From: an uncultured Gammaproteobacteria bacterium
Lineage (GTDB): Bacteria; Patescibacteriota; Microgenomatia; Levybacterales; UBA12049
DNA: 64,000 nt
Direction: 5' to 3'
Assembly (NCBI GenBank): GCA_965230895.1
Contig: OZ246394.1
Span: forward strand, 569,316-633,315
A program made the translations under genes and the position numbers. Of this stretch, positions 3,043-33,074 are shown in pieces; the first letter of the stretch is position 1; each line of letters starts with the position of its first letter. The notes below the pieces were generated by a model. It was not told where the DNA came from. It made no database searches and saw only the letters and a list, made by a program, of their open reading frames with translations.

Positions 3043-3231
3043 TTGTACCTGATGAATAAAGAATTACCAGAAGAAAAGATCGAAGAAACAGTCAATATGC
3101 TTGAACTATGTGCGTTAGTATTGAAGTTCTATACATCCACAAGGGAATTGAAGTATATTATTGAATTGAATACAGCAGTAAATAGACTCCACTCCCTATT
3201 CCCACGAAAGGAAAAAAATGAGTCCTGTTGA
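3043..3231 (+). CDS. Small hypothetical protein immediately upstream of, and overlapping, the recombinase; possible accessory or directionality factor
   Basis: 62-aa ORF, 14-nt overlap with the recombinase start; no recognisable motif. Confidence 0.2.
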   Translation: MYLMNKELPEEKIEETVNMLELCALVLKFYTSTRELKYIIELNTAVNRLHSLFPRKEKNESC

Positions 3232-4519
3232 GTATTGCTTGTATGCACGAAAATCAACAGAGGATGACGAGCGTCAAGCCATGTCAATCGACTCTCAGAT
3301 TAAAGAAATGACTGATTTGGCTATCAGAGACAATCTTTTCATTAAAGAAGTACGAACTGAGAAACATTCTGCTAAAGCATCTGGAAACCGCCCTGTCTTT
3401 GCCAAGCTCCTCGAAGACATTCGAAGCGGTGAATTTAGCGGTATTCTGACTTGGGCACCTGATCGACTAAGTCGTAACGCAGGAGATTTGGGTATGCTTG
3501 TCGACATGATGGATCAAGAAAAACTCCATCAGATACGAACATTCTCACAGTCATTCTCAAATAACCCAAATGAGAAGTTTTTGTTGATGATCCTTTGTTC
3601 TCAAGCAAAGCTAGAGAACGATAATCGGGGCATCAATGTAAAAAGAGGCATGCGAGCAAGATGTAGTATGGGTTGGCGACCGACAGTACCTCCTCTAGGA
3701 TATCTAAGTCAACTTGATAAATCAAACCCTCAGCTTATTATTATTGATCCTGAGCGAGCGTTTATTGTCAAACAGATATTTGATAAAGTTGCAAATCAAG
3801 GACAAAGTGGAAGAACAGTTAAACGGTGGCTTGATAGAATTGGCTTTGAGACCAGAACAGGTAAAAAGCTTGCACTTGGCAATATCTATACCATCCTCAA
3901 AAACTCCTTCTATTACGGCAAATTTGAATACCTTGTAAATAGTGGCACATGGTATGAAGGGAAACATGAACCACTGATTACAAAAGAATTATTCGATAAA
4001 GTACAAATCCAACTGCAAGTACCACCAAAAACATGGAGAAAAAACATTTTTCCTTTCAAAAAGATCTTTATTTGCGGAGGATGCAATGGAGGCATCACAG
4101 CTGAAGTAAAGCAAAAGAAATTAAAATTGGGAGGATATACAAAACACGTTTATTATCATTGCGCCAGATCAGTTGATTATGAGTGTGATGAACCCTACCT
4201 AACTGAAGAAGAACTTATCAGACAACTTATCTTTAATATTGATCAGATTAGCTTTAATCTTTCAGGAATGACAAGAAAAATTCAGGAAGATATTGAAAGA
4301 TATCATAGGCTCAAATTAGAAGTTCTAAATATGGAATATTTAACTGGAAATTTACAAGAATTAAGACCAAGGGTAGATAATGAAGAAAGACAAATAATGA
4401 TGAAGAATTATCTTAAACATATTCTAACAATTGGAACTTCAGAAGAAAGACAAGAAATCCTCACATTTATTAAAACCAAGTTCATTCTTCAAGATAGGCA
4501 CATAGTCATATCGAAATAG
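3218..4519 (+). CDS. Large serine recombinase (resolvase/invertase catalytic domain, recombinase domain and zinc ribbon)
   Basis: N-terminal YARKSTEDD with catalytic Ser and the RLSRN motif of serine recombinases. C-terminal CGGCNGG...HC zinc-ribbon-like segment. 433 aa. Confidence 0.85.
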   Translation: MSPVEYCLYARKSTEDDERQAMSIDSQIKEMTDLAIRDNLFIKEVRTEKHSAKASGNRPVFAKLLEDIRSGEFSGILTWAPDRLSRNAGDLGMLVDMMDQEKLHQIRTFSQSFSNNPNEKFLLMILCSQAKLENDNRGINVKRGMRARCSMGWRPTVPPLGYLSQLDKSNPQLIIIDPERAFIVKQIFDKVANQGQSGRTVKRWLDRIGFETRTGKKLALGNIYTILKNSFYYGKFEYLVNSGTWYEGKHEPLITKELFDKVQIQLQVPPKTWRKNIFPFKKIFICGGCNGGITAEVKQKKLKLGGYTKHVYYHCARSVDYECDEPYLTEEELIRQLIFNIDQISFNLSGMTRKIQEDIERYHRLKLEVLNMEYLTGNLQELRPRVDNEERQIMMKNYLKHILTIGTSEERQEILTFIKTKFILQDRHIVISK

Positions 4520-4699
4520 CCTCAGAAACCGCAATTTAATCTAAAGGACTCCGCAATATTTACGAATAATTTACGTTCTACGGGGCTATTACTTACGGGA
4601 TGTAAAATAGAATATGTCAGAATCGAGAGAAATTTTAGCAAGTACCAGCAAGCTAATCAAGGATAGCAGCATAGTCAATACTGAACACTATAGGATTAG

Positions 4700-4771
4700 T
4701 GAGCCCCTGGGGATTCGAACCCCAAACCAATACCTTAAGAGGGTACTGCTCTACCGTTGAGCTAGAGGCCC
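4700..4771 (-). tRNA. tRNA-Lys (anticodon CTT)
   Basis: The reverse complement folds as a cloverleaf: acceptor GGGCCTC/GGGGCTC, D-arm GCTC-AACGGTA-GAGC, anticodon loop CTCTTAA, T-arm TGGGG-TTCGAAT-CCCCA, discriminator A. Confidence 0.85.
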
Positions 4772-4905
4772 AGTTGGAACAGAACTTATTTTACCAAATT
4801 CCGCCTCAAACATCCACTTTTTCTTATTTCCTCTCCAAACTCAGCCTAAACTCACAGTTATCTTGCTTCTCTTCTATAAAACATATACTATAAAATTACG
4901 GATTA

Positions 4906-6123
4906 ATGGAGAAAATTCACATGCATCATAAACGAATTGGAAAGAAACATATACTCATACTCTTTTTCTCTCTTTTTATTCTTATGGGCGGATTAATCCT
5001 GACGCTTAATCAAACACAAATTCGTCAAGATCAAAGAAGTCTCGCAGCTGGAGACTGTACAGTGGACGAAACACAATTACAAACAAAGCCACAAGAGCAA
5101 GCTCTTTTCGATCTCATCAATGCCTATCGAACACAAAATGGATTACCAGTATTGAGTTGGAGTCCAGCATTGAGACGACCAGCAGCTTGGCTTAGTGCAG
5201 ATATGTCTAGGACAAGAAACTTAAGCCACACTGATTCGTTAGGAAGGCTTCCTGAAACAAGACTCCCTGATTGTGGTTTTCCATTGTCAACAAGTTATGG
5301 GGAAAATATTGCGAACGGAGATGCAACAGCACAGTCAATATTGGATGCTTGGAAAACTTCTCCTCCACATAATCAAATAATGTTAAGCGCAAGCTATACA
5401 CAAGGAGCAATTGCCATGGAACTTGATACAACAGGTGTAGCATATTGGACACTCGATGTTGGAGGTACATTTAATACAAATCCTACGACAACAATCAATC
5501 CCACTTCAGGGACAAATCCGACAATAGCGGTGACATCGGCTCTGTCTCCAATGCCTTCAGACATGATTACTCCGACAAAGGGTTCATCAAATGGAAAACT
5601 TCCGACCCCAACACTTGGACCAGAAGGTGTTGATGTCCAATTATCCGTGCGAGTAAAGATCAGTGGTATTGGAAGAGATGGAAATGTCACTCCGAAGAAT
5701 TTGACGAGAAAGGTTTCAGCAGCAATATATGGATTGGGTGAGGCACCTGTTACTACAGGAAATGCATTCTTAACATACGACGGACAAGACTACTTTAGTG
5801 GCATTATACGACTGGGCAAACTTACACAAGGAGTATATTTGGTTAAATTATCGACAGATAATTCTCTTCAGACTTTAGCTCGACCAGAATTCCAGACTAT
5901 TATGATCGATCGAGTCAATGAAATCCCTGCTGTAATGCTCTATCCAGGAGATATGAATAGAGACAATGTACTTAACCTTGCAGATTACAATGAAGTGCTT
6001 CCATGCTTCCAGAATAAGAAATGTGATACTGCAACGGTTATTGATTTCAATGACGATTCAACAACAGATGTTAAAGACTACAACTTATTCCTTCGAAGCT
6101 TTAGTCAGCAACCTGGAAATTAA
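4906..6123 (+). CDS. Secreted or membrane-anchored CAP/SCP (PR-1-like) domain protein with a C-terminal dockerin-like double calcium-binding-loop module
   Basis: N-terminal TM/signal. CAP motifs include GENIANGD and HNQIMLSASYTQGA. The C-terminal segment DMNRDNVLNLAD...IDFNDDSTTDVKDYNLFLRSF fits the DxNxDxxxNxxD dockerin repeat pattern twice. Confidence 0.7.
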   Translation: MEKIHMHHKRIGKKHILILFFSLFILMGGLILTLNQTQIRQDQRSLAAGDCTVDETQLQTKPQEQALFDLINAYRTQNGLPVLSWSPALRRPAAWLSADMSRTRNLSHTDSLGRLPETRLPDCGFPLSTSYGENIANGDATAQSILDAWKTSPPHNQIMLSASYTQGAIAMELDTTGVAYWTLDVGGTFNTNPTTTINPTSGTNPTIAVTSALSPMPSDMITPTKGSSNGKLPTPTLGPEGVDVQLSVRVKISGIGRDGNVTPKNLTRKVSAAIYGLGEAPVTTGNAFLTYDGQDYFSGIIRLGKLTQGVYLVKLSTDNSLQTLARPEFQTIMIDRVNEIPAVMLYPGDMNRDNVLNLADYNEVLPCFQNKKCDTATVIDFNDDSTTDVKDYNLFLRSFSQQPGN

Positions 6124-6136
6124 TACATAAATCAGC

Positions 6137-7771
6137 ATGGTAAAGAAAGAGAGTAAAAAACAGATCATAAAAATAGTAACGCAATATGGTGTCCATATCT
6201 GGGCAATTCTTATCATTGCAAATGCTGCGCTTGCATACGCTTTTCATTTTTCAACCCAAGCAGCTAGTAAGCCTGCGACAACCCTTGAAGAAAGTCTTGG
6301 ACCAAGAACTACCGAAGATGAATTAGATGCAACTCCATCAGCAAAAATCTCGCCTACAAAAGCACCGAAGCCAAAAGGAGGAACTATTGATCTTACTTTC
6401 AGAATTCCAGGTATTGGGAGTGATAGTGCAGTAATGGCACCAAAGCGTTTGGAGAGAAATGTAACTGTATTCCTTTATTCACCGGATAGTAATTCTCTCA
6501 ATAATTCAGTGAAGCCACTCTATACACTGAAGACGACAGCACAATTTGATACCAATACTCTGAGTCCGACATATACAAGTTATCTAGTCAAAGGATTAGA
6601 TTTTGGAACAGATGTGAAAGATGGAAGATATCAAATTGTTTTCCGCACCGATGAATCCCTCCGCACTATTATTAAGGAAAGCCCGACAAATATCGGAGGA
6701 CAATTATTTGAAATCACAAAATCAGCGAAGATCCGTCGAGTACCAACACAGACAGTGTTTATGGGAGATACGCTACCGAAGGAAGGAGATAATGTCGTAG
6801 ATATCAGTGACTATAATGCGTTTGTTAATTGTTTTGGAGAACGCAACTCATCATCATTTTGTATAGGAAATAATTATGGTGATTTCGATGACAATGGTGT
6901 TATTGATGGTGTCGATTATAATTTACTTTTACGTTCATTCCAGGAACTTTTGAAACAAGGCCAATCAATTCCAAAGGTATCTGTAGCTCCAACTTCAGGT
7001 CCACAACGGGTATCAAGATTAACAAGTATTACACCAACTGCAGTTAAAGAGAAAGTCTCACCTACGAAAGCACCTCAACAAACTGTACAAACAAAATCGA
7101 GTGGTAATGTTCTCGGCGGAATCCTCTTCTTTATTTTTCTCTTAATCGTTGGAGCAATACTCTTTATTCTCTTTAAGAAAAATGAAAAATTCCGAAATAC
7201 TATTCTGGCATTGTTACACAAATCTCCTGTCGGACCAACACCACCAGCACAACCAGCAGATCCAAATGCTCCAGTCGATCCAAATACACCTCCAGCAGAT
7301 GGCGCAGCTCAAGCAGATCCGACAACTGTTGCAGGACCCCCTACGGCAGACGCAACAGCAGCAACAGAGGAAACCCAGTCTGATCCAAATGCGGTGGCAG
7401 CCTCTACAGAAATCCCTGTGGAGTCAGTCGCAACGCCAACAGAAACAACACCTCCGCCAGCAGAACCAGCTGCTGATCCTTCAGCTATCGCTGCTTCAAC
7501 TGAAATTCCAGTTGCTGCAACACCTCCTGTAGATCCTGCGCGACCAACCCCTGCGGATGGAGAAACTGTAGAACGAGATTGCTATGTGAAGAAGAAGTTA
7601 CCGGGTGATGCATCTGGTGTATGGCTCACATTAACGGACGACAATGGGGCATTGGAAGCACATTACGCAAAACCTGATGTCGAAGAAGGATTCGCGAAAG
7701 TCAAAGGTGTTATGAAGACGGAAAATGGCAAGACCTATCTTGAAGTTTCAGAAATTATTGGTGAAGGTTAA
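6137..7771 (+). CDS. Membrane protein with dockerin-like module, internal TM helix and Pro/Ala/Thr-rich linker
   Basis: VDISDYNAFVNCFGE...GDFDDNGVIDGVDYNLLLRSF is homologous to the module in the upstream gene. TM at GGILFFIFLLIVGAILFILF. Low-complexity PA-rich stretch 7200-7560. Confidence 0.6.
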   Translation: MVKKESKKQIIKIVTQYGVHIWAILIIANAALAYAFHFSTQAASKPATTLEESLGPRTTEDELDATPSAKISPTKAPKPKGGTIDLTFRIPGIGSDSAVMAPKRLERNVTVFLYSPDSNSLNNSVKPLYTLKTTAQFDTNTLSPTYTSYLVKGLDFGTDVKDGRYQIVFRTDESLRTIIKESPTNIGGQLFEITKSAKIRRVPTQTVFMGDTLPKEGDNVVDISDYNAFVNCFGERNSSSFCIGNNYGDFDDNGVIDGVDYNLLLRSFQELLKQGQSIPKVSVAPTSGPQRVSRLTSITPTAVKEKVSPTKAPQQTVQTKSSGNVLGGILFFIFLLIVGAILFILFKKNEKFRNTILALLHKSPVGPTPPAQPADPNAPVDPNTPPADGAAQADPTTVAGPPTADATAATEETQSDPNAVAASTEIPVESVATPTETTPPPAEPAADPSAIAASTEIPVAATPPVDPARPTPADGETVERDCYVKKKLPGDASGVWLTLTDDNGALEAHYAKPDVEEGFAKVKGVMKTENGKTYLEVSEIIGEG

Positions 7772-9819
7772 GCCGCAAGCTTATCATCAGTATCACCAGC
7801 AAGTACTCTATCAACTTCTCTTTTCGTAGCAGTTAATCCGTCCTCTTTGGCGACTACAGGCATCTTATTATATATTTCTATTACGCCAGTTAGATATGCT
7901 TGCGCTGCAGTAACTTCTGCCTCACTCGTTATCAGTGGAGTTCTCCAATCTTCCCCTGCACTTGTAGGACTATTTGATCCATCAACTTTTTTGCCTAATT
8001 GATAGATGAGACCACTATTTGTATCTTTGTCTGGACCAACCATCTTGGCTGCAACTTCTCGCAATGGAGCTTTAAATTCAATATCCCATACTGGGAATAT
8101 TTGTCGGATCGCATTTCCCCATTCATGCAAACGATTTTTTAATGCCCTTTGGTCTACCTTGATTTCAGGTTTTTTATTCTTTTTATCTTCTTTTGCGATG
8201 AGTTTTGCTTTCATTGCAGCCGCAGATTTTGCTTCAACTTTTGGTTTAACGTCAACTTGAGCATCAATTTTTGCACTTGTTTGCGTAGACGCAATTGCTT
8301 CAACATTGGTCTGTGAGACAGCTATCATTTCTGTATTTGTTTGAGTCACGATCTGCATACGAGGCGCAACTTGCGCTTCTGTTACAATACCTGGCTGAAC
8401 TTTTACTTCAGGCTTCGTCATCAATTCAGGCTCTGTTTTTATCGGCTGCATTTCCACTTTTCCAGTTGTTATTTGCTCTACAATTCGGCCAGTTGCGAGT
8501 TGGTCTGGAGATGTCTGTAAGAACCTATCAACTTTTAACTGAGCCTCTTTGATATTTGGGACAATTCCAGCTCTCAAATATGCTTGCGCTACTCGCTCTC
8601 GTTGCTCTGCTTCTACTTTTTCTTTTTTTTCTTTCGTTTTCTTATCATCTTCAGGAAGAATATCTAAGTATGAAAGGTTGGCAAGTTCTCGAGTATTTAC
8701 AGAAACGGTTTCGATGTGAGCAACTGGGTTTTGCTCTATTATTCGGTCCTCAGGAACAGCTGGCTTTGATACGATTACAGGTTTCAATTCTTCGGCTACA
8801 GAACGTGTCTGTACAACCTGCGCAATTACTTTTTGCACAGGAGCTGCTGGTGCTTCAACTGTCTTGGCAGGCTGCTCAATCACAGCTTGTGTCTCAACAA
8901 CCACTTCTGGTTTGGGTGCAACTGTTGGTTCTATTGACGGACGAATGATAACCGGAGGCTCTTGAATGACAGTTTCAAAAACTTTCATTTCAGGTTTCGC
9001 AGTTGGTTCAACGATTGCCTCAGTCGGAGTTGAGATTACTTCGGTTGGGACTATTTTTTCGACAGGTACGTTTACTTTTTCTTCTAAATCTACTTTTGAC
9101 TGTGTAACTTCTTTTGGTTGTGTTTGTACTTCTGGTTGATTCACTTTTTCTAAGGAAACAACGGGTGAAACGACTTTCTCTACAGCAATATCTGATTTTT
9201 GCTCTACGTTAGCATCTGGTTGAGGTGCTTTGGATTCTGGAAGCTTTACTTGAGCATCTTTAACATGGTTATTATTTATCTCATTATTGAAAGGAGCAGA
9301 TTGCGAAACATTTTCTTTTGAAACCAGACTTTTCGGAGTGGCTTCAGCATGAGGTTTAAACTCTGGTAGTTTATCTAGTCTCGTATTTGCACTTGATTGT
9401 GGGATAACTGCAGCTACTTCAATATTTCCTTTTTTAGCTCCATTGGATGAAGTTGCTTCGGGAGCTTTTGATTTAGGAGTGTTTTCTTTTACCAAAGAGA
9501 CCGCTGGAGAAGATTCTGTAAGTGAATCCATCCGAGGTGTTCTTGCCGAAGATTCCATAAATCCTCCAGTTTTGTTACCAACTGATCGGCTTGATTGGAA
9601 TTTGCTTCCTTCGAGAGAAAGTGAAGGTTTTGATACAGAACCGAGGGAAGGTCTGCTTTCAGAACTTTTACCAAATGATGCAAGTCCTCGTGAAGAAAAT
9701 GAAGAAGTCATTCCAGATCCGGATCCTCGTTCTATACCACCACCGAAGCCGCGTCCTCCACTTAATGTGGCTGTTCCGCCGCCTCGTGATCCTCCTGATA
9801 TTCCACCTGTTTTTGCCAT
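7768..9819 (-). CDS. Large (683 aa) predominantly disordered protein with Gly/Arg-rich (RGG-like) N-terminus and a small folded C-terminal domain
   Basis: Uninterrupted ORF with a typical K/E/P/V/T-rich low-complexity body. No signal peptide or TM. N-terminus GGSRGGGTATLSGGRGFGGG. Confidence 0.55.
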   Translation of the reverse strand: MAKTGGISGGSRGGGTATLSGGRGFGGGIERGSGSGMTSSFSSRGLASFGKSSESRPSLGSVSKPSLSLEGSKFQSSRSVGNKTGGFMESSARTPRMDSLTESSPAVSLVKENTPKSKAPEATSSNGAKKGNIEVAAVIPQSSANTRLDKLPEFKPHAEATPKSLVSKENVSQSAPFNNEINNNHVKDAQVKLPESKAPQPDANVEQKSDIAVEKVVSPVVSLEKVNQPEVQTQPKEVTQSKVDLEEKVNVPVEKIVPTEVISTPTEAIVEPTAKPEMKVFETVIQEPPVIIRPSIEPTVAPKPEVVVETQAVIEQPAKTVEAPAAPVQKVIAQVVQTRSVAEELKPVIVSKPAVPEDRIIEQNPVAHIETVSVNTRELANLSYLDILPEDDKKTKEKKEKVEAEQRERVAQAYLRAGIVPNIKEAQLKVDRFLQTSPDQLATGRIVEQITTGKVEMQPIKTEPELMTKPEVKVQPGIVTEAQVAPRMQIVTQTNTEMIAVSQTNVEAIASTQTSAKIDAQVDVKPKVEAKSAAAMKAKLIAKEDKKNKKPEIKVDQRALKNRLHEWGNAIRQIFPVWDIEFKAPLREVAAKMVGPDKDTNSGLIYQLGKKVDGSNSPTSAGEDWRTPLITSEAEVTAAQAYLTGVIEIYNKMPVVAKEDGLTATKREVDRVLAGDTDDKLAA

Positions 9820-27709: not shown

Positions 27710-30376
27710 CTAGTCAGCATCTAGAAATTTTTTGTTTTCGAGACGAAAGAGTTTTAATTTCTCTTTAAGATCTGCGAGTCTATTTAATGCTTCCAATGGA
27801 GTCATCTGTGATATATCAAGTTTTTCAAGTTCTTTGCTAATTAAATGATCTATTATATTTATCTGTGTAGAAACGGCTGTACTCTTTTGTTTTGTAACAT
27901 TCAACTGTTTTTCTTCAACACTTGATGATCTACTTTCGAGTTCTTCTAAAAGGTTTTTTGCTCGTGCAACAACCTCAGACGGTATTCCTGCAAGTTTTGC
28001 TACTGCAATACCAAAACTATGTGACGCACCTCCAGTAATAATCGTATGCAAAAATACTGGCTCCCCTTTTTCTTCTGTCACTGACATATGGAAATTACGT
28101 ATTTTCTTAGGAAATAATTCTTCTAAAACTTGAAGCTCATGATAATGAGTAGCAAATAATGTCTTTGGATTACTTTTTTGTGAGACCAAGTATTCTGCAA
28201 CTGCCCATGCAATACTAATCCCATCGTACGTACTTGTTCCTCGACCTATTTCATCCATAATAATCAAACTTTTTTCTGTCGCATTATGCAGAATATTCGC
28301 AGTCTCGACCATTTCAACCATAAATGTAGACAAACCAGAAGTAATAACGTCAGACGCTCCAGACCGAACAAATATCTGGTCTACTGGTGTTATCTTTGCA
28401 GAGTCTGCTGGAACGAAACATCCGATTTGAGCCATCAAGACAATCAACGCGGTTTGACGGATGTAGACAGATTTTCCTGCCATATTTGGTCCTGTTATAA
28501 GCATCAATTGTTGTGAGCTTTTGTCCAGACGGACATCATTGGGGACAAATTTTCCTGATCCAAGTAACATTTCGACAACAGGATGTCTTCCCGATTCTAT
28601 ATATAATGATCCATCCGAAACTAATTCAGGTCTGACATATCTATTTTTTTCGGCCAGAAATGCAAATGCCAATAAACAATCAAAAGCAGCAATACTTTGT
28701 GCAGCTTCTTGGATAGTCGATGCTTGTGACAAAACGTCAGTGAGAATGTCTTGAAATAATTTATACTCAATATCATTTATTTTCTCTTCCGCACTGAGAA
28801 TAATTTCTTCTTGTTCTTTTAATTCTGGAGTTATAAACCGTTCAGCATTTACCAGTGTTTGTTTTCTCATGTAATGATTTGGTACTGATGATAAATTTGA
28901 TTTGCTCACTTCAATATAAAATCCAAATACTTGATTAAAACGTACTTTTAGGGATGATATGCCAGTTTCTCTTCGCTCTTTTGCTTCCATTTCCACGATC
29001 CATTCACGGCCTCCACCAACAATTTCTCGCAAGCGATCAAGCTCTTCATCTATTTTTGAAGCAATCATTCCTCCTTCACGAATACTAATGGGTGGTTCGG
29101 CAACAATTACTTTATCTATTTGATGGATAATATTCTTAATTGTTTTTGTATCAATTCGTTTAGAAATTTTTTGTAAAGATTTACTCTCAAAATTATTAAG
29201 ATGCGTTTGAATTTCTATAATTGTAATAAGTGAACTTTTGAGATTTACTAAATCACGTGCATTTCCCAGTCCTACAGACAGGCGGGAGAATAATCGCTCA
29301 ATATCACTTACCTTCTCTATAGTTATTCGAAGTTCATTTCTTTTTCTTTGTTGCTTAAACAGTTCTTCGACAGCGTTATGTCGACCTGAAATTTCTGTTT
29401 CAGAGACTAAAGGTTTTTTAATCCACTCTTTCAGAAGTCTTCCGCCCATTGCCGTCACTGTTTGATCTAAAACAGAAAGCAATGTTCCTTTTGAATCATG
29501 TTCTCGAATAGTAGAAAAAAGTTCGAGGTTAATCATCGTTGAACGATCGAGAGCAACAACATCTTCGCTTGAATAAACTGAAATTTTTTTAATGTGATGA
29601 ACTGGTCTCTTTTGTGTTTGTTGTAAATATCCTAGAAGTGCTGCGGCTGTTCTTTTTGCATTGAATTGATCATTGATACCGAATCCAGCCAAAGTTGTTG
29701 TCCCAAAATGTTTCGTCAACGTTTGCTCTGCATCATTAGCATATAAATCCCATTCATTAAAAGGAAATATATTAATATCCTTCTCTATTCTCAAAATCTT
29801 GAGAATATTGGAGTTATTGTATAAATCTGGATGAAGGATACATTCTTTAGGAAGCAATCTTGCAAATTCATCTTGTACTATTTGTTCAAAATTGATTGAT
29901 TTAAATTCTGTTGTAGCGAAATAGCCTGTTGAAACATCAGCGACAGAGAGTGCAAAAATATTCTTATCAAGACTCAACGCAACTATATAGTTATTGTCTT
30001 TTTTCTCGAGTGCTTTTTCATCTAGCATTGTCCCTGGAGTAACTATACGAACGACGTCTCGTTCAACAAGTCCTTTTTTGTTTGGAGGAGATAACTGCTC
30101 ACAAATTGCCACTTTATAGCCTGCTTTTACTAATTTTGCTAAATAAGAATCTACAGCGTGATATGGGACGCCTGCCATTGGAATCCGTCCGCCTTTACCA
30201 TTTGCTTTTCCAGTTAGCGTAATATTTAAGACGCGCGCACCGATATGAGCATCATCAAGAAAAAGCTCGTAAAAATCTCCCATCCGGTAAAACAGTAAAC
30301 AATCCTGATACTGTTTTTTAACAGTTTCATATTGTTTCATCATTGGTGTACTGAAGTTTTCTTGCATAGACAGCAT
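27710..30376 (-). CDS. mutS: DNA mismatch repair protein MutS
   Basis: 888 aa; mismatch-binding N-terminus, Walker [14 protein letters not shown], motif ATHYHEL. Confidence 0.95.
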
Positions 30377-30448
30377 GTACTACTATACAAGTTTTAAATA
30401 GTTTTTTGAAGTATTACAAGATTTACCTTTTATCTATTTATTTGCATA

Positions 30449-30477
30449 TTGTCAGTCATTGTTGTTTGGATTATAAT
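30449..30477 (+). promoter_or_regulatory. Near-consensus sigma70-type promoter (TTGTCA-17-TATAAT) upstream of the tyrosinase gene
   Basis: ttgtca at 30449-30454, a 17-nt spacer, tataat at 30472-30477, 19 nt before the ATG at 30497. Confidence 0.45.
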
Positions 30478-30496
30478 CTCGCTGTTCTAGTATTTT

Positions 30497-31531
30497 ATGA
30501 AAAAGTTAATCTTCTTAATTAGTTTCCTTTTACTTGCCCTCTTCACAACTTTCAATACCACTCCAACATATGCTCAAGTAGTCCCAACCAATTGTGATCA
30601 ACAAATGAATATGGATGGGATGAATATGCCACAACCGTCTTGTCCTCCAGCACCAACTCCAACAGTTGCGATAAATCCTGATGCTGCAAATACACCAGTT
30701 GTCCGCAAAAATATCTATAGTATGACACCAGATGAGTTAAATAGATTTATCAATGCGTTAAATACAGTTCGAGCAAATGGTTCGTATAATCGATTTATGG
30801 ATGAGCATATGCAAGCGATGATGATGAGAACTCCCGCAGATGACACTTCTACATTAAGAAATGCCGCACATCGAGGACCAATATTTTTGCCTTGGCATAG
30901 AGCATTTGTATGGGAATTCGAACAACTATTAAGAACTGTTGATCCAACTGTATCCATCCCATACTGGGCTTTCGAAAATGAAACTCCAGGAACTATACCT
31001 ATGGTATTCTCTGCAAACTATTTTGGTGGCGATGGAAACATTGCGCAGGGTGATAGAGTTACTGATGGACCTTTCGCTTCATGGGGAATTACGAGGAGAA
31101 TAGGCCGAGACGCACAAGGTCAACCAACACTTCCAACCGCGGGAGATATTGCAACAGTATTACAGATCAATGATTATGATACCCCACCATACAATGAATC
31201 TTCACAAGGTTTTAGAAACGCACTAGAGGGATGGATTGGGACAAATGCTCCATGGGGAGTTCATAATAGAGTTCACGGATATATCGGTGGAGATATGCTC
31301 CCTGATGGCATGAGTGGTAATGCTGTTAACGATCCTATCTTTTGGGTTGTTCATACAAACATTGATCGAATCTGGTGGCAGTGGCAACAGACTCATGGAA
31401 TAACAAATTACCAACCTGTTGTCGGTGGACCTGAAGGACATAATCTTAATGATGTGATGTTTATCCTCCCAAGTCAGGGAACAGCGTCAAATACTTTAGA
31501 TATAAATCAGATGAACTACACGTATAACTAA
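30497..31531 (+). CDS. Secreted tyrosinase / type-3 copper polyphenol oxidase
   Basis: Sec signal MKKLIFLISFLLLALFTTFNTTPTYA. CuA motif HRGPIFLPWHRAF. CuB motifs HNRVHGYIGGDM and DPIFWVVHTNIDRIWWQWQ. Confidence 0.85.
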   Translation: MKKLIFLISFLLLALFTTFNTTPTYAQVVPTNCDQQMNMDGMNMPQPSCPPAPTPTVAINPDAANTPVVRKNIYSMTPDELNRFINALNTVRANGSYNRFMDEHMQAMMMRTPADDTSTLRNAAHRGPIFLPWHRAFVWEFEQLLRTVDPTVSIPYWAFENETPGTIPMVFSANYFGGDGNIAQGDRVTDGPFASWGITRRIGRDAQGQPTLPTAGDIATVLQINDYDTPPYNESSQGFRNALEGWIGTNAPWGVHNRVHGYIGGDMLPDGMSGNAVNDPIFWVVHTNIDRIWWQWQQTHGITNYQPVVGGPEGHNLNDVMFILPSQGTASNTLDINQMNYTYN

Positions 31532-31534
31532 TAG

Positions 31535-32413
31535 CTAAACGATTTTATCTGTTTCTTTTTCCTCGGCTTTTTCGATATCAAATCCTCTTTGCTCCAGTTT
31601 TGAACCAATTTCATCCATAAGGACTTTATATAAACGCACTGTTAAAACAAAGCTTCCAGGTCGGTATGGATGATCGAAATCCTCAATAATAATTAAGACG
31701 CCATAAGCAAGTAGCGCTAAAACAATTGTAAAATAATAGTTATAACCAAGATAATTGAATGGAACAAACAATGACCCAACAACAACCGAGTATGTAGCGA
31801 GATTTACATAAATCTTTATTCCTCTTGGCAGACGCTGATTTGTATATTGAATTTTCTTTTCTCGATATTCCATTGCTCGCGTTAAATAATTAAAAACCAT
31901 TTGTCCTACATCTGGATATTTTTTAGAAGCATTAAAGACACTATCTTCAATTTTAATAAGAGCATTATCAACTTCTTTGGATCGTGTCACAAGCATTCGA
32001 TCACTTTTGGTATCAGATGCATCTATATATGTCTTAAGGTAACTATAAATATGGAAACGAATTTCATTCATTTCTGCTTTTGGAAAATGATGCGCTAATA
32101 TAAATAACTGCCGAAGCATATTAATCTCACCACGATTAGCATCAATCAGTCTATCCCATTTAGTCCACTGCGCCTGGATAATAAAAGCAGAGATAATACT
32201 GAAGATGAGGTTCCCTGCACCGAAAAGAGCGGGAATAGCAAAACGGTCAGCCTCTAATTTATAGTCTGGAAGAAGATTTGATGTACGTACATAAAAGAAC
32301 ACCGCAGAAAAAATAATAGTGAAAAGTAATACTTTAATAACAATTGATCTTATGTATAAACGCTCGTAAAGTTTACCTGTAGTTGCTAATAATTCAGTTT
32401 TAACAAGTTCCAT
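31535..32413 (-). CDS. Hypothetical membrane protein (TM helices at both ends, central soluble region)
   Basis: 292-aa ORF; hydrophobic segments LLFTIIFSAVFFYV, LIFSIISAFIIQ, VVVGSLFVPF, IVLALLAYGVLIII. Confidence 0.4.
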   Translation of the reverse strand: MELVKTELLATTGKLYERLYIRSIVIKVLLFTIIFSAVFFYVRTSNLLPDYKLEADRFAIPALFGAGNLIFSIISAFIIQAQWTKWDRLIDANRGEINMLRQLFILAHHFPKAEMNEIRFHIYSYLKTYIDASDTKSDRMLVTRSKEVDNALIKIEDSVFNASKKYPDVGQMVFNYLTRAMEYREKKIQYTNQRLPRGIKIYVNLATYSVVVGSLFVPFNYLGYNYYFTIVLALLAYGVLIIIEDFDHPYRPGSFVLTVRLYKVLMDEIGSKLEQRGFDIEKAEEKETDKIV

Positions 32414-32471
32414 AATACTATCGTATCAAAAATAATCATACATTTAAAGGAATATTTGGTAAAATATATTA

Positions 32472-33074
32472 ATGAAAATTGCTATACTTGGCGGAAGTTT
32501 TGATCCACCTCATCTTGGACATTTCTTTATTGCGCAACAAGTCCAAGAGTTGCTGAAAATGGATCAAGTCTGGTTAATGCCTGCATATCATCATCCGTTC
32601 AATAGAAATCTCTCTGATATATCTCATCGTGTAGCAATGACAAGATTGTTGGAGACTGATCATATTAAGCTTTCAGCATATGAACAGAAACATAATCCAA
32701 CAAGCTTTACAATTGATACATTAAACGGTTTAAAAAGTGATTATCCTGAAAATGACTATTACTGGATTACAGGCAGTGATCAATTAGAACATTTTCAAAA
32801 GTATAAAGATTGGCAAGAGATTATCAAGAAGCATAATCTTATTATATTTCCAAGAGAATGGATGCTTCCTCACTTAAAAGAAACTGTGAAAGAAAAGCTC
32901 ATGTTGAAAACAATTCCTGAAAATGTTATTGTTCTACAGTCAGATGATCTTTTTCTAACGAACATATCATCGACAAAGATCCGTGAAAGAGTTAAAAATA
33001 ATGCATCAATAAAATTTTTTGTTCCCGTCGGAGTTGAAGATTACATTAGAGAAAATAAACTTTATGCCGAATGA
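32472..33074 (+). CDS. nadD: Nicotinate-nucleotide adenylyltransferase
   Basis: GGSFDPPHLGHF (HxGH nucleotidyltransferase motif) and SSTKIRE near the C-terminus. Confidence 0.85.
   Translation: MKIAILGGSFDPPHLGHFFIAQQVQELLKMDQVWLMPAYHHPFNRNLSDISHRVAMTRLLETDHIKLSAYEQKHNPTSFTIDTLNGLKSDYPENDYYWITGSDQLEHFQKYKDWQEIIKKHNLIIFPREWMLPHLKETVKEKLMLKTIPENVIVLQSDDLFLTNISSTKIRERVKNNASIKFFVPVGVEDYIRENKLYAE

Follow-up and report, generated by a model that had tools for sequence, protein, structure and literature searches.

A predicted Sec-exported tyrosinase of a Patescibacteria-like bacterium without a neighboring caddie gene and the possible role of its methionine-rich N-terminal tail in copper capture

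Results and Discussion

Within the 64,000 nucleotides analyzed here (positions 569,316 to 633,315 of contig OZ246394.1, in the following called the window), a gene was identified whose product is an intact member of the type-3 copper tyrosinase family, with both the fold and the set of copper ligands complete. The protein carries a predicted Sec signal peptide, followed in the mature chain by a short tail in which four methionines are bracketed by two cysteines. Very probably, it is an exported, caddie-independent tyrosinase that is loaded with copper outside the cytoplasm. Considerably more tentative is the account as a whole, according to which this caddie-free, Sec-exported enzyme, similar to the tyrosinase of Bacillus megaterium (TyrBm), additionally possesses a tail for the capture of Cu(I); its probability is estimated to fall somewhat short of even. 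The features concerned are the following (coordinates of the window; AF2, AlphaFold2; pLDDT, predicted local distance difference test score):

30449..30477, plus strand: sigma-70-type promoter match (TTGTCA at 30449-30454, 17-nt spacer, TATAAT at 30472-30477)
30497..31531, plus strand: tyrosinase gene, 344 codons and TAA stop
30497..30574, plus strand: predicted Sec signal peptide with n/h/c layout, residues 1-26
30575..30697, plus strand: mature N-terminal tail, residues 27-67 (41 residues), a Cys/Met element followed by a Pro/Thr/Ala-rich linker
30593..30643, plus strand: Cys-bracketed Met cluster C33-DQQ-M37-N-M39-DG-M42-N-M44-PQPS-C49, from the sequence
30698..31528, plus strand: catalytic type-3 copper core, residues 68-344 (277 residues), AF2 pLDDT mostly >90
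30806..30898, plus strand: CuA site (H104, H125, H134), mapped onto known ligands
31226..31354, plus strand: CuB site (H256, H260, H286) together with N257 (position HisB1+1) and E244, mapped onto known residues

The Catalytic Core

In a Pfam scan, the protein matched PF00264 (Tyrosinase) with an E-value of 2e-37 and 130.1 bits (cutoff 22.6) over profile positions 2-213 of 214, and a search of the PDB sequences returned the tyrosinases of Streptomyces castaneoglobisporus and B. megaterium at E-values of about 1e-51 to 1e-52. All six copper histidines map one-to-one onto known ligands (H42/60/69/204/208/231 in TyrBm; H38/54/63/190/194/216 in Streptomyces MelC2), while E244 and N257 correspond to E195 and N205 of TyrBm and to E182 and N191 of MelC2. 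The Asn at HisB1+1 and the conserved Glu have been linked to monophenolase activity (for HisB1+1, PMC11608171). The six histidines, N257 and E244 are invariant in an alignment of the 17-sequence clade to which the protein belongs; in a 91-sequence alignment of the family, N257 and the ligand histidines other than H104 are invariant, with H104 and E244 nearly so (at least 90%). The AF2 model, for which 91 homologues were used, reached a mean pLDDT of 88, and its best Foldseek matches were structures of the B. megaterium tyrosinase (probability 1.0, TM scores of 0.88-0.90, root-mean-square deviation 1.9 Å), in keeping with the four-helix bundle of the tyrosinase fold. The core has no C-terminal lid domain, and its alignment reaches the C-terminal end of TyrBm. 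All of this is in agreement with a preliminary description of the DNA, made from the letters alone, which had called both type-3 copper sites intact; the three motifs quoted there hold H125/H134 and H256/H260/H286, and the unquoted H104 is present as well.

TyrBm (PDB 3NM8 and others) shares 36-38% identity with the window enzyme, aligned over the whole core, as well as the six histidines, the Asn at HisB1+1 and the Glu, and both enzymes have neither a lid domain nor a caddie gene. However, TyrBm (P0067) starts directly at the core, whereas the window enzyme has both a signal peptide and a tail, and M61, M184, R209, and V218 of TyrBm are replaced by R126, E234, G261, and S273. Streptomyces MelC2 (PDB 1WX2; E-value 1e-52, TM scores of 0.87-0.88) has the HRxPxFLPWHR and HNRVH motifs in common with it. 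In contrast to the window gene, melC2 genes are preceded by melC1, which encodes the caddie (PF06236), and MelC2, lacking a signal peptide of its own, is exported together with the caddie that bears a twin-arginine translocation (Tat) signal (PMC11608171); the window enzyme possesses its own Sec-type signal with no RR. Judged by sequence, the core is similar to both TyrBm and MelC2, and the enzyme very probably belongs to the class of short caddie-independent bacterial tyrosinases.

A second methionine cluster, MDEHMQAMMM (residues 101-110; 30797-30826), surrounds the CuA ligand H104 and contributes M101, M105, M108, M109, and M110. Throughout the clade, which probably belongs to the candidate phyla radiation (CPR), M108 and M109 do not vary, and most members also keep M105, for which the remainder carry Leu, Ile or Phe. 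The corresponding residues of TyrBm and MelC2 differ, and a link of the cluster to copper entry is possible.

Predicted Signal Peptide and Putative Export

The predicted signal peptide consists of MKK, LIFLISFLLLALFT and TFNTTPTYA, with QV following as the first residues of the mature protein. Its hydrophobic core spans 14 residues with a mean hydropathy of 2.9, and the window tyrosinase sequence contains neither a twin-arginine motif nor a lipobox nor a C-terminal sorting signal. The Ala-Gln junction aligns in eight out of eight short-form orthologues, and cleavage would accordingly be expected after Ala26. While the n/h/c layout is common to all 16 clade members, nearly all homologues outside the clade begin directly at the core without any N-terminal extension. 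Of the 80 metagenome loci returned by a further scan, almost all held distant homologues without a signal, and no additional close orthologue was gained.

The Sec pathway exports proteins unfolded. The presence of a Sec-type signal on the enzyme itself would therefore imply, from these established properties of the pathway, that the protein leaves the cytoplasm unfolded and that copper is inserted outside. In the proposed sequence of events, the tyrosinase would be exported through Sec and would lose its signal peptide after Ala26; the 277-residue core would then fold outside the cytoplasm and take up two copper ions there, and the folded enzyme would oxidize phenols or catechols, either free or in the form of tyrosine side chains, to quinones. 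The signal-peptide-like N-terminus announced in the preliminary description is thus confirmed, with export following from it as a prediction. Caddie-free exported tyrosinases are also known from Verrucomicrobium spinosum and Burkholderia thailandensis (PMC10526336). These pro-tyrosinases rely on Tat and on an inactivating domain at the C-terminus; the window enzyme, which is not extended C-terminally, instead combines a signal of the Sec type with a tail at its N-terminus. As far as the sequences tell, it is the export route that is unusual, since the Sec-type signal is located on the enzyme itself while Streptomyces and V. spinosum use Tat.

Search for a Caddie Protein

The textbook case of metallation of a bacterial tyrosinase is that of Streptomyces, which relies on a caddie protein. 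At the Streptomyces and Kitasatospora loci included for comparison, melC1 (PF06236) is indeed located directly upstream of melC2. At the window locus, a divergent mutS lies upstream of the tyrosinase gene and a convergent gene for a Bestrophin-like protein downstream, and the earlier statement that no caddie gene is adjacent therefore holds. It had further been proposed to look for melC1-like genes elsewhere, and none was found within the 64-kb window or at the related loci: phmmer searches with two genuine MelC1 sequences (from loci L010 and L011) against six-frame translations, covering every stop-to-stop fragment of at least 40 residues, yielded no match in the window, L001, L002, L007, and L008. 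The best hit (E-value 0.12, on a 42-aa fragment) represents noise. Likewise, Pfam scans of about 45 open reading frames (ORFs) of the window detected no MelC1, copper chaperone or copper ATPase.

In the window, no gene lies between mutS and the tyrosinase gene; among relatives this gap is variable and contains the following:

L002:7118-7921 (84% relative): 267-aa cytoplasmic protein without Pfam match
L008:8163-8858: 231-aa protein on the opposite strand
L096:3244-4447: 70-aa ORF and a short-chain dehydrogenase

Since the orthologous gaps hold unrelated genes, there is no conserved neighboring partner. The 267-aa ORF of L002 was considered as a caddie analogue and rejected, as it has no signal peptide, no Pfam match and no homologue in the window, and the other loci differ at this position. 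Small ORFs are also found downstream of distant tyrosinases (L007:11474-11968, L013:2979-3548, L014:7753-7919, L012:3900-4223), those at the long-form loci coding for membrane-anchored proteins, one of them with the motifs TMNHES and GTMDHTE. None of these four ORFs is significantly similar to MelC1. The two complete ones, of L007 and L013, share no similarity; as a conserved partner, the small ORFs following long-form tyrosinases were discarded, being mutually dissimilar and having no counterpart in the window. The ORF at the Modestobacter locus, which codes for 107 aa with a Tat-like RRRF signal, was also discarded as a divergent caddie, because BLASTP and Pfam revealed no significant similarity.

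The preliminary description had treated the missing caddie as remarkable. This view cannot be maintained, given that caddie-free bacterial tyrosinases are well documented, the enzyme of B. megaterium having no accessory domain and those of V. spinosum and B. thailandensis a C-terminal lid (PMC10526336, PMC11608171), that TyrBm is the best structural match, and that the window protein scores below the cutoff of the NCBIfam equivalog model for MelC2 (NF047834; 201.9 bits, cutoff 450).

The Mature N-Terminal Tail

The methionines M37, M39, M42, and M44 are located 11-18 residues past the predicted cleavage site. The methionine-rich segment thus starts 11 residues beyond the Ala-Gln junction and, as had been claimed before, is part of the mature chain rather than of the signal peptide. 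Its pattern, C-x3-MxMxxMxM-x4-C, contains both MxMxxM and MxxMxM, and C33 and C49 are the sole cysteines of the whole tyrosinase. Of the 57 window proteins examined (19,466 residues, 1.9% Met), the tyrosinase alone has at least four methionines in nine residues, which occur in the tail and again at residues 101-110; from shuffling, 0.15 proteins of this kind would be expected per set, and 0.003 for the exact pattern M.M..M.M. The AF2 model, with a pLDDT of about 51-54 over residues 21-60, predicts the tail to be disordered and not docked on the core.

A comparison with the orthologue of 84% identity gave the following proportions of nonsynonymous differences (pN):

Signal peptide: pN 0.42, 16/26 residues changed
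Tail: pN 0.11, 7/41 residues changed
Core: pN 0.062, 31/277 residues changed

Synonymous sites are near saturation in this comparison (proportion of synonymous differences 0.57-0.71). The contrast between the tail (0.11) and the signal peptide (0.42) shows that purifying selection acts on the tail in the closest sublineage, unlike on a freely drifting linker. P0001 keeps all four methionines and both cysteines, and P0123, whose tail is shortened (C-NS-MDGMDM-GQPQS-C), keeps both cysteines and three of the four methionines. At the predicted mature N-terminus of P0002, P0005, P0006, and P0007, which form one sublineage in a neighbor-joining tree, a different arrangement is found, namely Q-[H/M]-x-[H/D]-[M/T] (QHVHT, QHADM, QMADM). 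Hence, residues of the type that serves as copper ligands are present at the tail position in two of the four short-form sublineages and missing from the other two.

The MxMxxM motif of the N-terminus of human Ctr1 binds Cu(I) and Ag(I) selectively and through methionines only (PMC9117721). The tail of the window enzyme resembles the Mets motifs of Ctr1 and of CopC, PcoC, CueO, and CopA in that exact MxMxxM and MxxMxM patterns are placed in a predicted flexible, extracytoplasmic segment. By contrast, there is no homology in sequence or fold, the motif of the window enzyme is bracketed by two cysteines, and metal binding by its tail is putative. The likeliest role of the Cys-bracketed methionine loop, although at odds below even, is that of an arm which captures Cu(I) to help metallation along and is dispensable in principle. 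Being flexible, such an arm would raise the local copper concentration and pass the metal on to the nearby active site, with the thioethers as ligands, alone or together with both thiols; it would be an accessory aid and not an obligatory chaperone. The two cysteines could either serve as copper ligands or form a disulfide that shapes the 17-residue methionine loop. Of the built-in copper-acquisition tail suggested previously, the part that stands is an element kept and constrained in close relatives; in other orthologues it is replaced or ligand-free. The methionine-rich segment as such is accordingly retained in the three closest relatives and absent from P0003, P0008 and the long forms described below.

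Relatives and Other N-Terminal Attachments

About 17 non-redundant close relatives with 54-84% identity were found, all of them from metagenomes. Below these there is a gap, followed by actinobacterial enzymes (Modestobacter, Kineococcus) at about 45% identity. In the long forms, the place of the tail is occupied by one or two copies of a domain of about 65 residues with four cysteines, followed by a Pro/Thr linker. This domain, with the consensus RLGGMNLDGYC...W.CQSG..IN...ACQWQY...NPYTW.CY, is carried by P0004, P0009-P0016, P0249, and P0251 (loci L007, L013, L014, L015). It is modeled by AlphaFold with a pLDDT of 95, has neither a Pfam match nor a fold match in the PDB, and may represent an undescribed small binding module. 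In P0249-P0251, extensions of approximately 500-680 residues with further domains precede the core, giving proteins of 780-961 residues. One may speculate that the binding-module-like domains of these relatives direct the enzyme to a polymer or a cell surface.

Other kinds of attachments were observed as well. In a group of tyrosinases comprising P0075, P0098, P0108, P0117, and P0275, the signal peptide is followed by CxCGPxCxCGPxCxCG, the core and a PEP-CTERM-like C-terminus; the neighbors of one such locus, L095:4570-5739, are planctomycete-like (N_methyl with SBP_bac_10, and a PEP_exosort protein). In P0281, P0288, P0297, and P0268, a segment recognized by eye as caddie-like (...VDGxxLHLM...HxxF...) is fused in front of the core, in some cases together with a twin-arginine signal, which would place caddie and enzyme in one polypeptide. 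The MelC1 of L010 contains a His/Met-rich stretch, GGHTGHGGMDHTGHD. Such ligand-rich or caddie-like attachments elsewhere make a built-in copper arm plausible. A more far-reaching version seems rather unlikely. In it, the Met/Cys loop would be a module for Cu(I) capture and hand-off that takes over the metallation task of MelC1, as one case of a convergent and recurring solution (Met, H/M and CxCGPxC tails, fused caddie-like segments), and the enzymes of the clade, many of them fused to the four-Cys module, would equip these reduced bacteria, which depend on hosts, with an O2-dependent, quinone-forming activity at the surface.

Alternative Explanations

Several observations weigh against a copper-capturing tail. 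The tails of P0003 and P0008 are Pro/Thr/Ser-rich and contain no Met, His or Cys, meaning that the core evidently can work without ligands in the tail; together with the lack of a conserved partner gene, this suggests that it takes up copper unaided. The constraint on the tail is seen in just three closely related sequences in which synonymous sites are saturated, so that the ratio of nonsynonymous to synonymous change is imprecise. Residues 27-67 fall outside every Pfam and NCBIfam match, no similarity to families of copper proteins was found, and AF2 gives no confident structure for the tail. Used as a query by itself, the 42-residue tail likewise produced no candidates in a database search. 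A general rule that Sec-exported tyrosinases carry tails with soft ligands was rejected, since at least five other, unrelated tyrosinases with a Sec signal have no such tail (P0289, P0291, P0361, P0374, P0383). No caddie or other helper was found in the 64 kb searched, out of a genome that measures 1.6 Mb or more. A DsbA-like protein with a thioredoxin fold is encoded at 198-863 (PF13462, E-value 7e-31), which implies that disulfides are formed outside the cytoplasm and makes a C33-C49 disulfide plausible; this bond would remove the thiols as ligands. Finally, the Cys/Met element may be what was left of a four-Cys domain after an internal deletion.

This last point leads to a rival view, in our estimation nearly as likely as the copper arm, in which the tail is a flexible Pro/Thr-rich spacer and its Cys/Met element a remnant of the long-form domain with no role in metal binding, the core loading copper alone. 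The long-form domain starts with (R)LGGMNLDGYC 8-10 residues past the cleavage site and ends with W-x-C-Y before the PT linker, and the window tail, which reads QQMNMDGMNMPQPSC-PPAPTPT (QQMNMDGM...SC before the linker), resembles the start of such a domain (GGMNLDGYC) in its MNMDG, at a like distance from the cleavage site. The neighbor-joining tree, drawn without support values, puts the long forms in a basal position and one of them, P0004, beside the sublineage of the window. The tails of the clade are hypervariable, two of them being devoid of ligand-type residues, and the predicted disorder fits a spacer. Yet a drifting remnant should change like the signal peptide (16/26 residues), whereas the tail differs at 7/41 at saturated synonymous divergence; the number of methionines has risen from one in the putative ancestral motif to four; and the cysteine pair has been retained across three close relatives. 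A 9-bp direct repeat, ATGAATATG, occurs twice in the coding region of the tail, and if the element is a remnant, the increase from one to four methionines would in part have come about through this repeat. Descent from the four-Cys domain may also simply be a non-adaptive origin that is compatible with a function at present.

Improbable, in comparison, is a regulatory or anchoring tail, which would act as a pro-peptide or placeholder occluding the active site, or whose thiols and thioethers would react with quinones or oxidants for tethering or protection. Control by a lid or placeholder is common at type-3 copper sites (PMC10526336, PMC11608171); lid domains and Tyr98 of the caddie occlude the active site in known systems, the tail carries the only cysteines of the tyrosinase, and the putative binding modules of long-form relatives suggest action at a surface. 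The tail, however, is not docked on the core in the AF2 model (pLDDT of about 52), is short and lacks an aromatic residue such as usually acts as a placeholder; most orthologues, moreover, do not have its key residues. Hardly credible is translation from an internal ATG of the methionine cluster, which would yield a cytoplasmic enzyme and leave the "signal peptide" untranslated. The cluster region does offer four in-frame ATGs, and P0122 (308 aa), the database copy of the 84% orthologue (gene L001:10001-11032 on a 1.32-Mb contig), begins at MNMDGMSM. But in all 16 clade members, highly divergent as they are, the frame stays open upstream and codes for a canonical signal peptide, the promoter match is placed upstream of the first ATG, and none of the internal ATGs is preceded by a ribosome-binding site. 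Separate from, and not exclusive with, these explanations of the tail is the question of the substrate, the range of which the sequence alone does not reveal. The enzyme could be a catechol oxidase or an o-aminophenol oxidase of the GriF/NspF/BagH type that acts on a small metabolite, rather than a strict tyrosinase. o-Aminophenol oxidases were matched, though more weakly (PDB 9t62, E-value 1.8e-31; NCBIfam BagH/FevF, 120 bits). The latter score is far under the cutoff of 630 bits, tyrosinases match far better in both the PDB sequence search and Foldseek, the pair of Asn (HisB1+1) and Glu is found in the window enzyme, and Pfam scans of the window revealed no biosynthetic gene cluster in the surroundings, all of which makes this substrate class improbable.

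The start of P0122 inside the methionine cluster drops the signal peptide, and automated annotation would consequently overlook export.

Significance

The enzyme is a divergent new member of a very well-known family, and if the tail is inert, the finding amounts to this. The architecture of the clade, with a Sec signal, variable N-terminal tails or modules and neither caddie nor lid, is unrepresented among the characterized bacterial tyrosinases listed in the reviews consulted. In the literature searched, nothing relevant was found on tyrosinases in connection with Patescibacteria or the candidate phyla radiation, or with methionine-rich N-terminal segments. The extracytoplasmic metal supply of exported copper enzymes is well worked out for few systems. 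If a copper-capturing role were to prove true, the 17-residue Met/Cys loop would constitute a minimal, portable metallation aid, and it would be useful in the production of recombinant tyrosinases, which are often underloaded with copper.

Patescibacteria (CPR) have small genomes and are generally seen as fermentative and dependent on host cells. A vertically kept, secreted, O2-dependent oxidase that forms quinones is outside this usual picture and therefore mildly surprising. That relatives are fused to putative binding modules hints at the bacterium's own surface or that of its host as the site of action.

Promoter and Gene Layout

The ORF of the tyrosinase has a single available ATG as its start, with an in-frame TAG 9 nt upstream. 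The near-consensus TTGTCA-17-TATAAT promoter reported earlier was recovered with 11 of 12 consensus positions and is the sole match of this quality within 30000-32600. From the end of its -10 box to the ATG there are 19 nt, which leaves a very short leader, without a recognizable Shine-Dalgarno sequence. In the whole window, eight sites with at least 11/12 positions were observed (16292, 18743, 30449, 38311, 40027, 46222, 54990, and 56624) against 4.2 in shuffled sequence, whereas looser 9/12 matches were not more frequent than in shuffled sequence. Seven of the eight directly precede a gene or tRNA and are correctly oriented for it, a tRNA-Lys being among the downstream features, and for this reason the class of sites with at least 11/12 positions is probably functional in the organism. 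At the orthologous loci, a strong promoter match is not conserved at the threshold used. In three of the eight sites, the -10 box lies 6-19 nt from the annotated start codon, and these short distances suggest that leaders in this organism can be very short or missing altogether. With mutS divergent upstream and the gene for the Bestrophin-like protein (PF14023) converging on the tyrosinase stop at a distance of three bases, the tyrosinase gene appears monocistronic by its layout.

Host and Genomic Context

The source contig comprises 1,610,123 bp. For the adjacent MutS, more than 120 relatives were found at 60-82% identity; few of them are named, and these are mostly assigned to Candidatus Levybacteria, Roizmanbacteria, Saccharimonadales or "Patescibacteria group", with two bearing other labels. 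With moderate confidence, the host can thus be regarded as a small-genome, Patescibacteria (CPR)-like bacterium. The small genome assumed in the preliminary description is in line with the contig of 1.61 Mb and the Patescibacteria names of the relatives. One related genome is contained in the collection of species representatives, in which the 84% orthologue is encoded on the 1.32-Mb contig (L001, CAZDOJ010000001.1). This relative is labeled "uncultured Gammaproteobacteria bacterium", in conflict with the kinship of its MutS, and the label is probably wrong.

In the readable loci, the order mutL-mutS-[variable]-tyrosinase-Bestrophin-like-nadD-nadE-epimerase-hydrolase is kept; the short contig of P0002 displays only mutS-[variable]-tyrosinase. 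The base composition of the tyrosinase gene equals that of its surroundings. The conserved gene order indicates that the gene has been inherited vertically beside mutS within the sublineage.

Other genes of the window code for type IV pilins, a CAP-domain protein and the DsbA-like thioredoxin. A serine recombinase (3218-4519) lies beside tRNA-Lys(CTT) (4699-4771), followed by the secreted CAP-domain protein (4906-6123) and two large ORFs without Pfam match (6137-7771 on the plus strand and 7768-9819 on the minus strand). The region 3218-9819 may be an element integrated at the tRNA gene.

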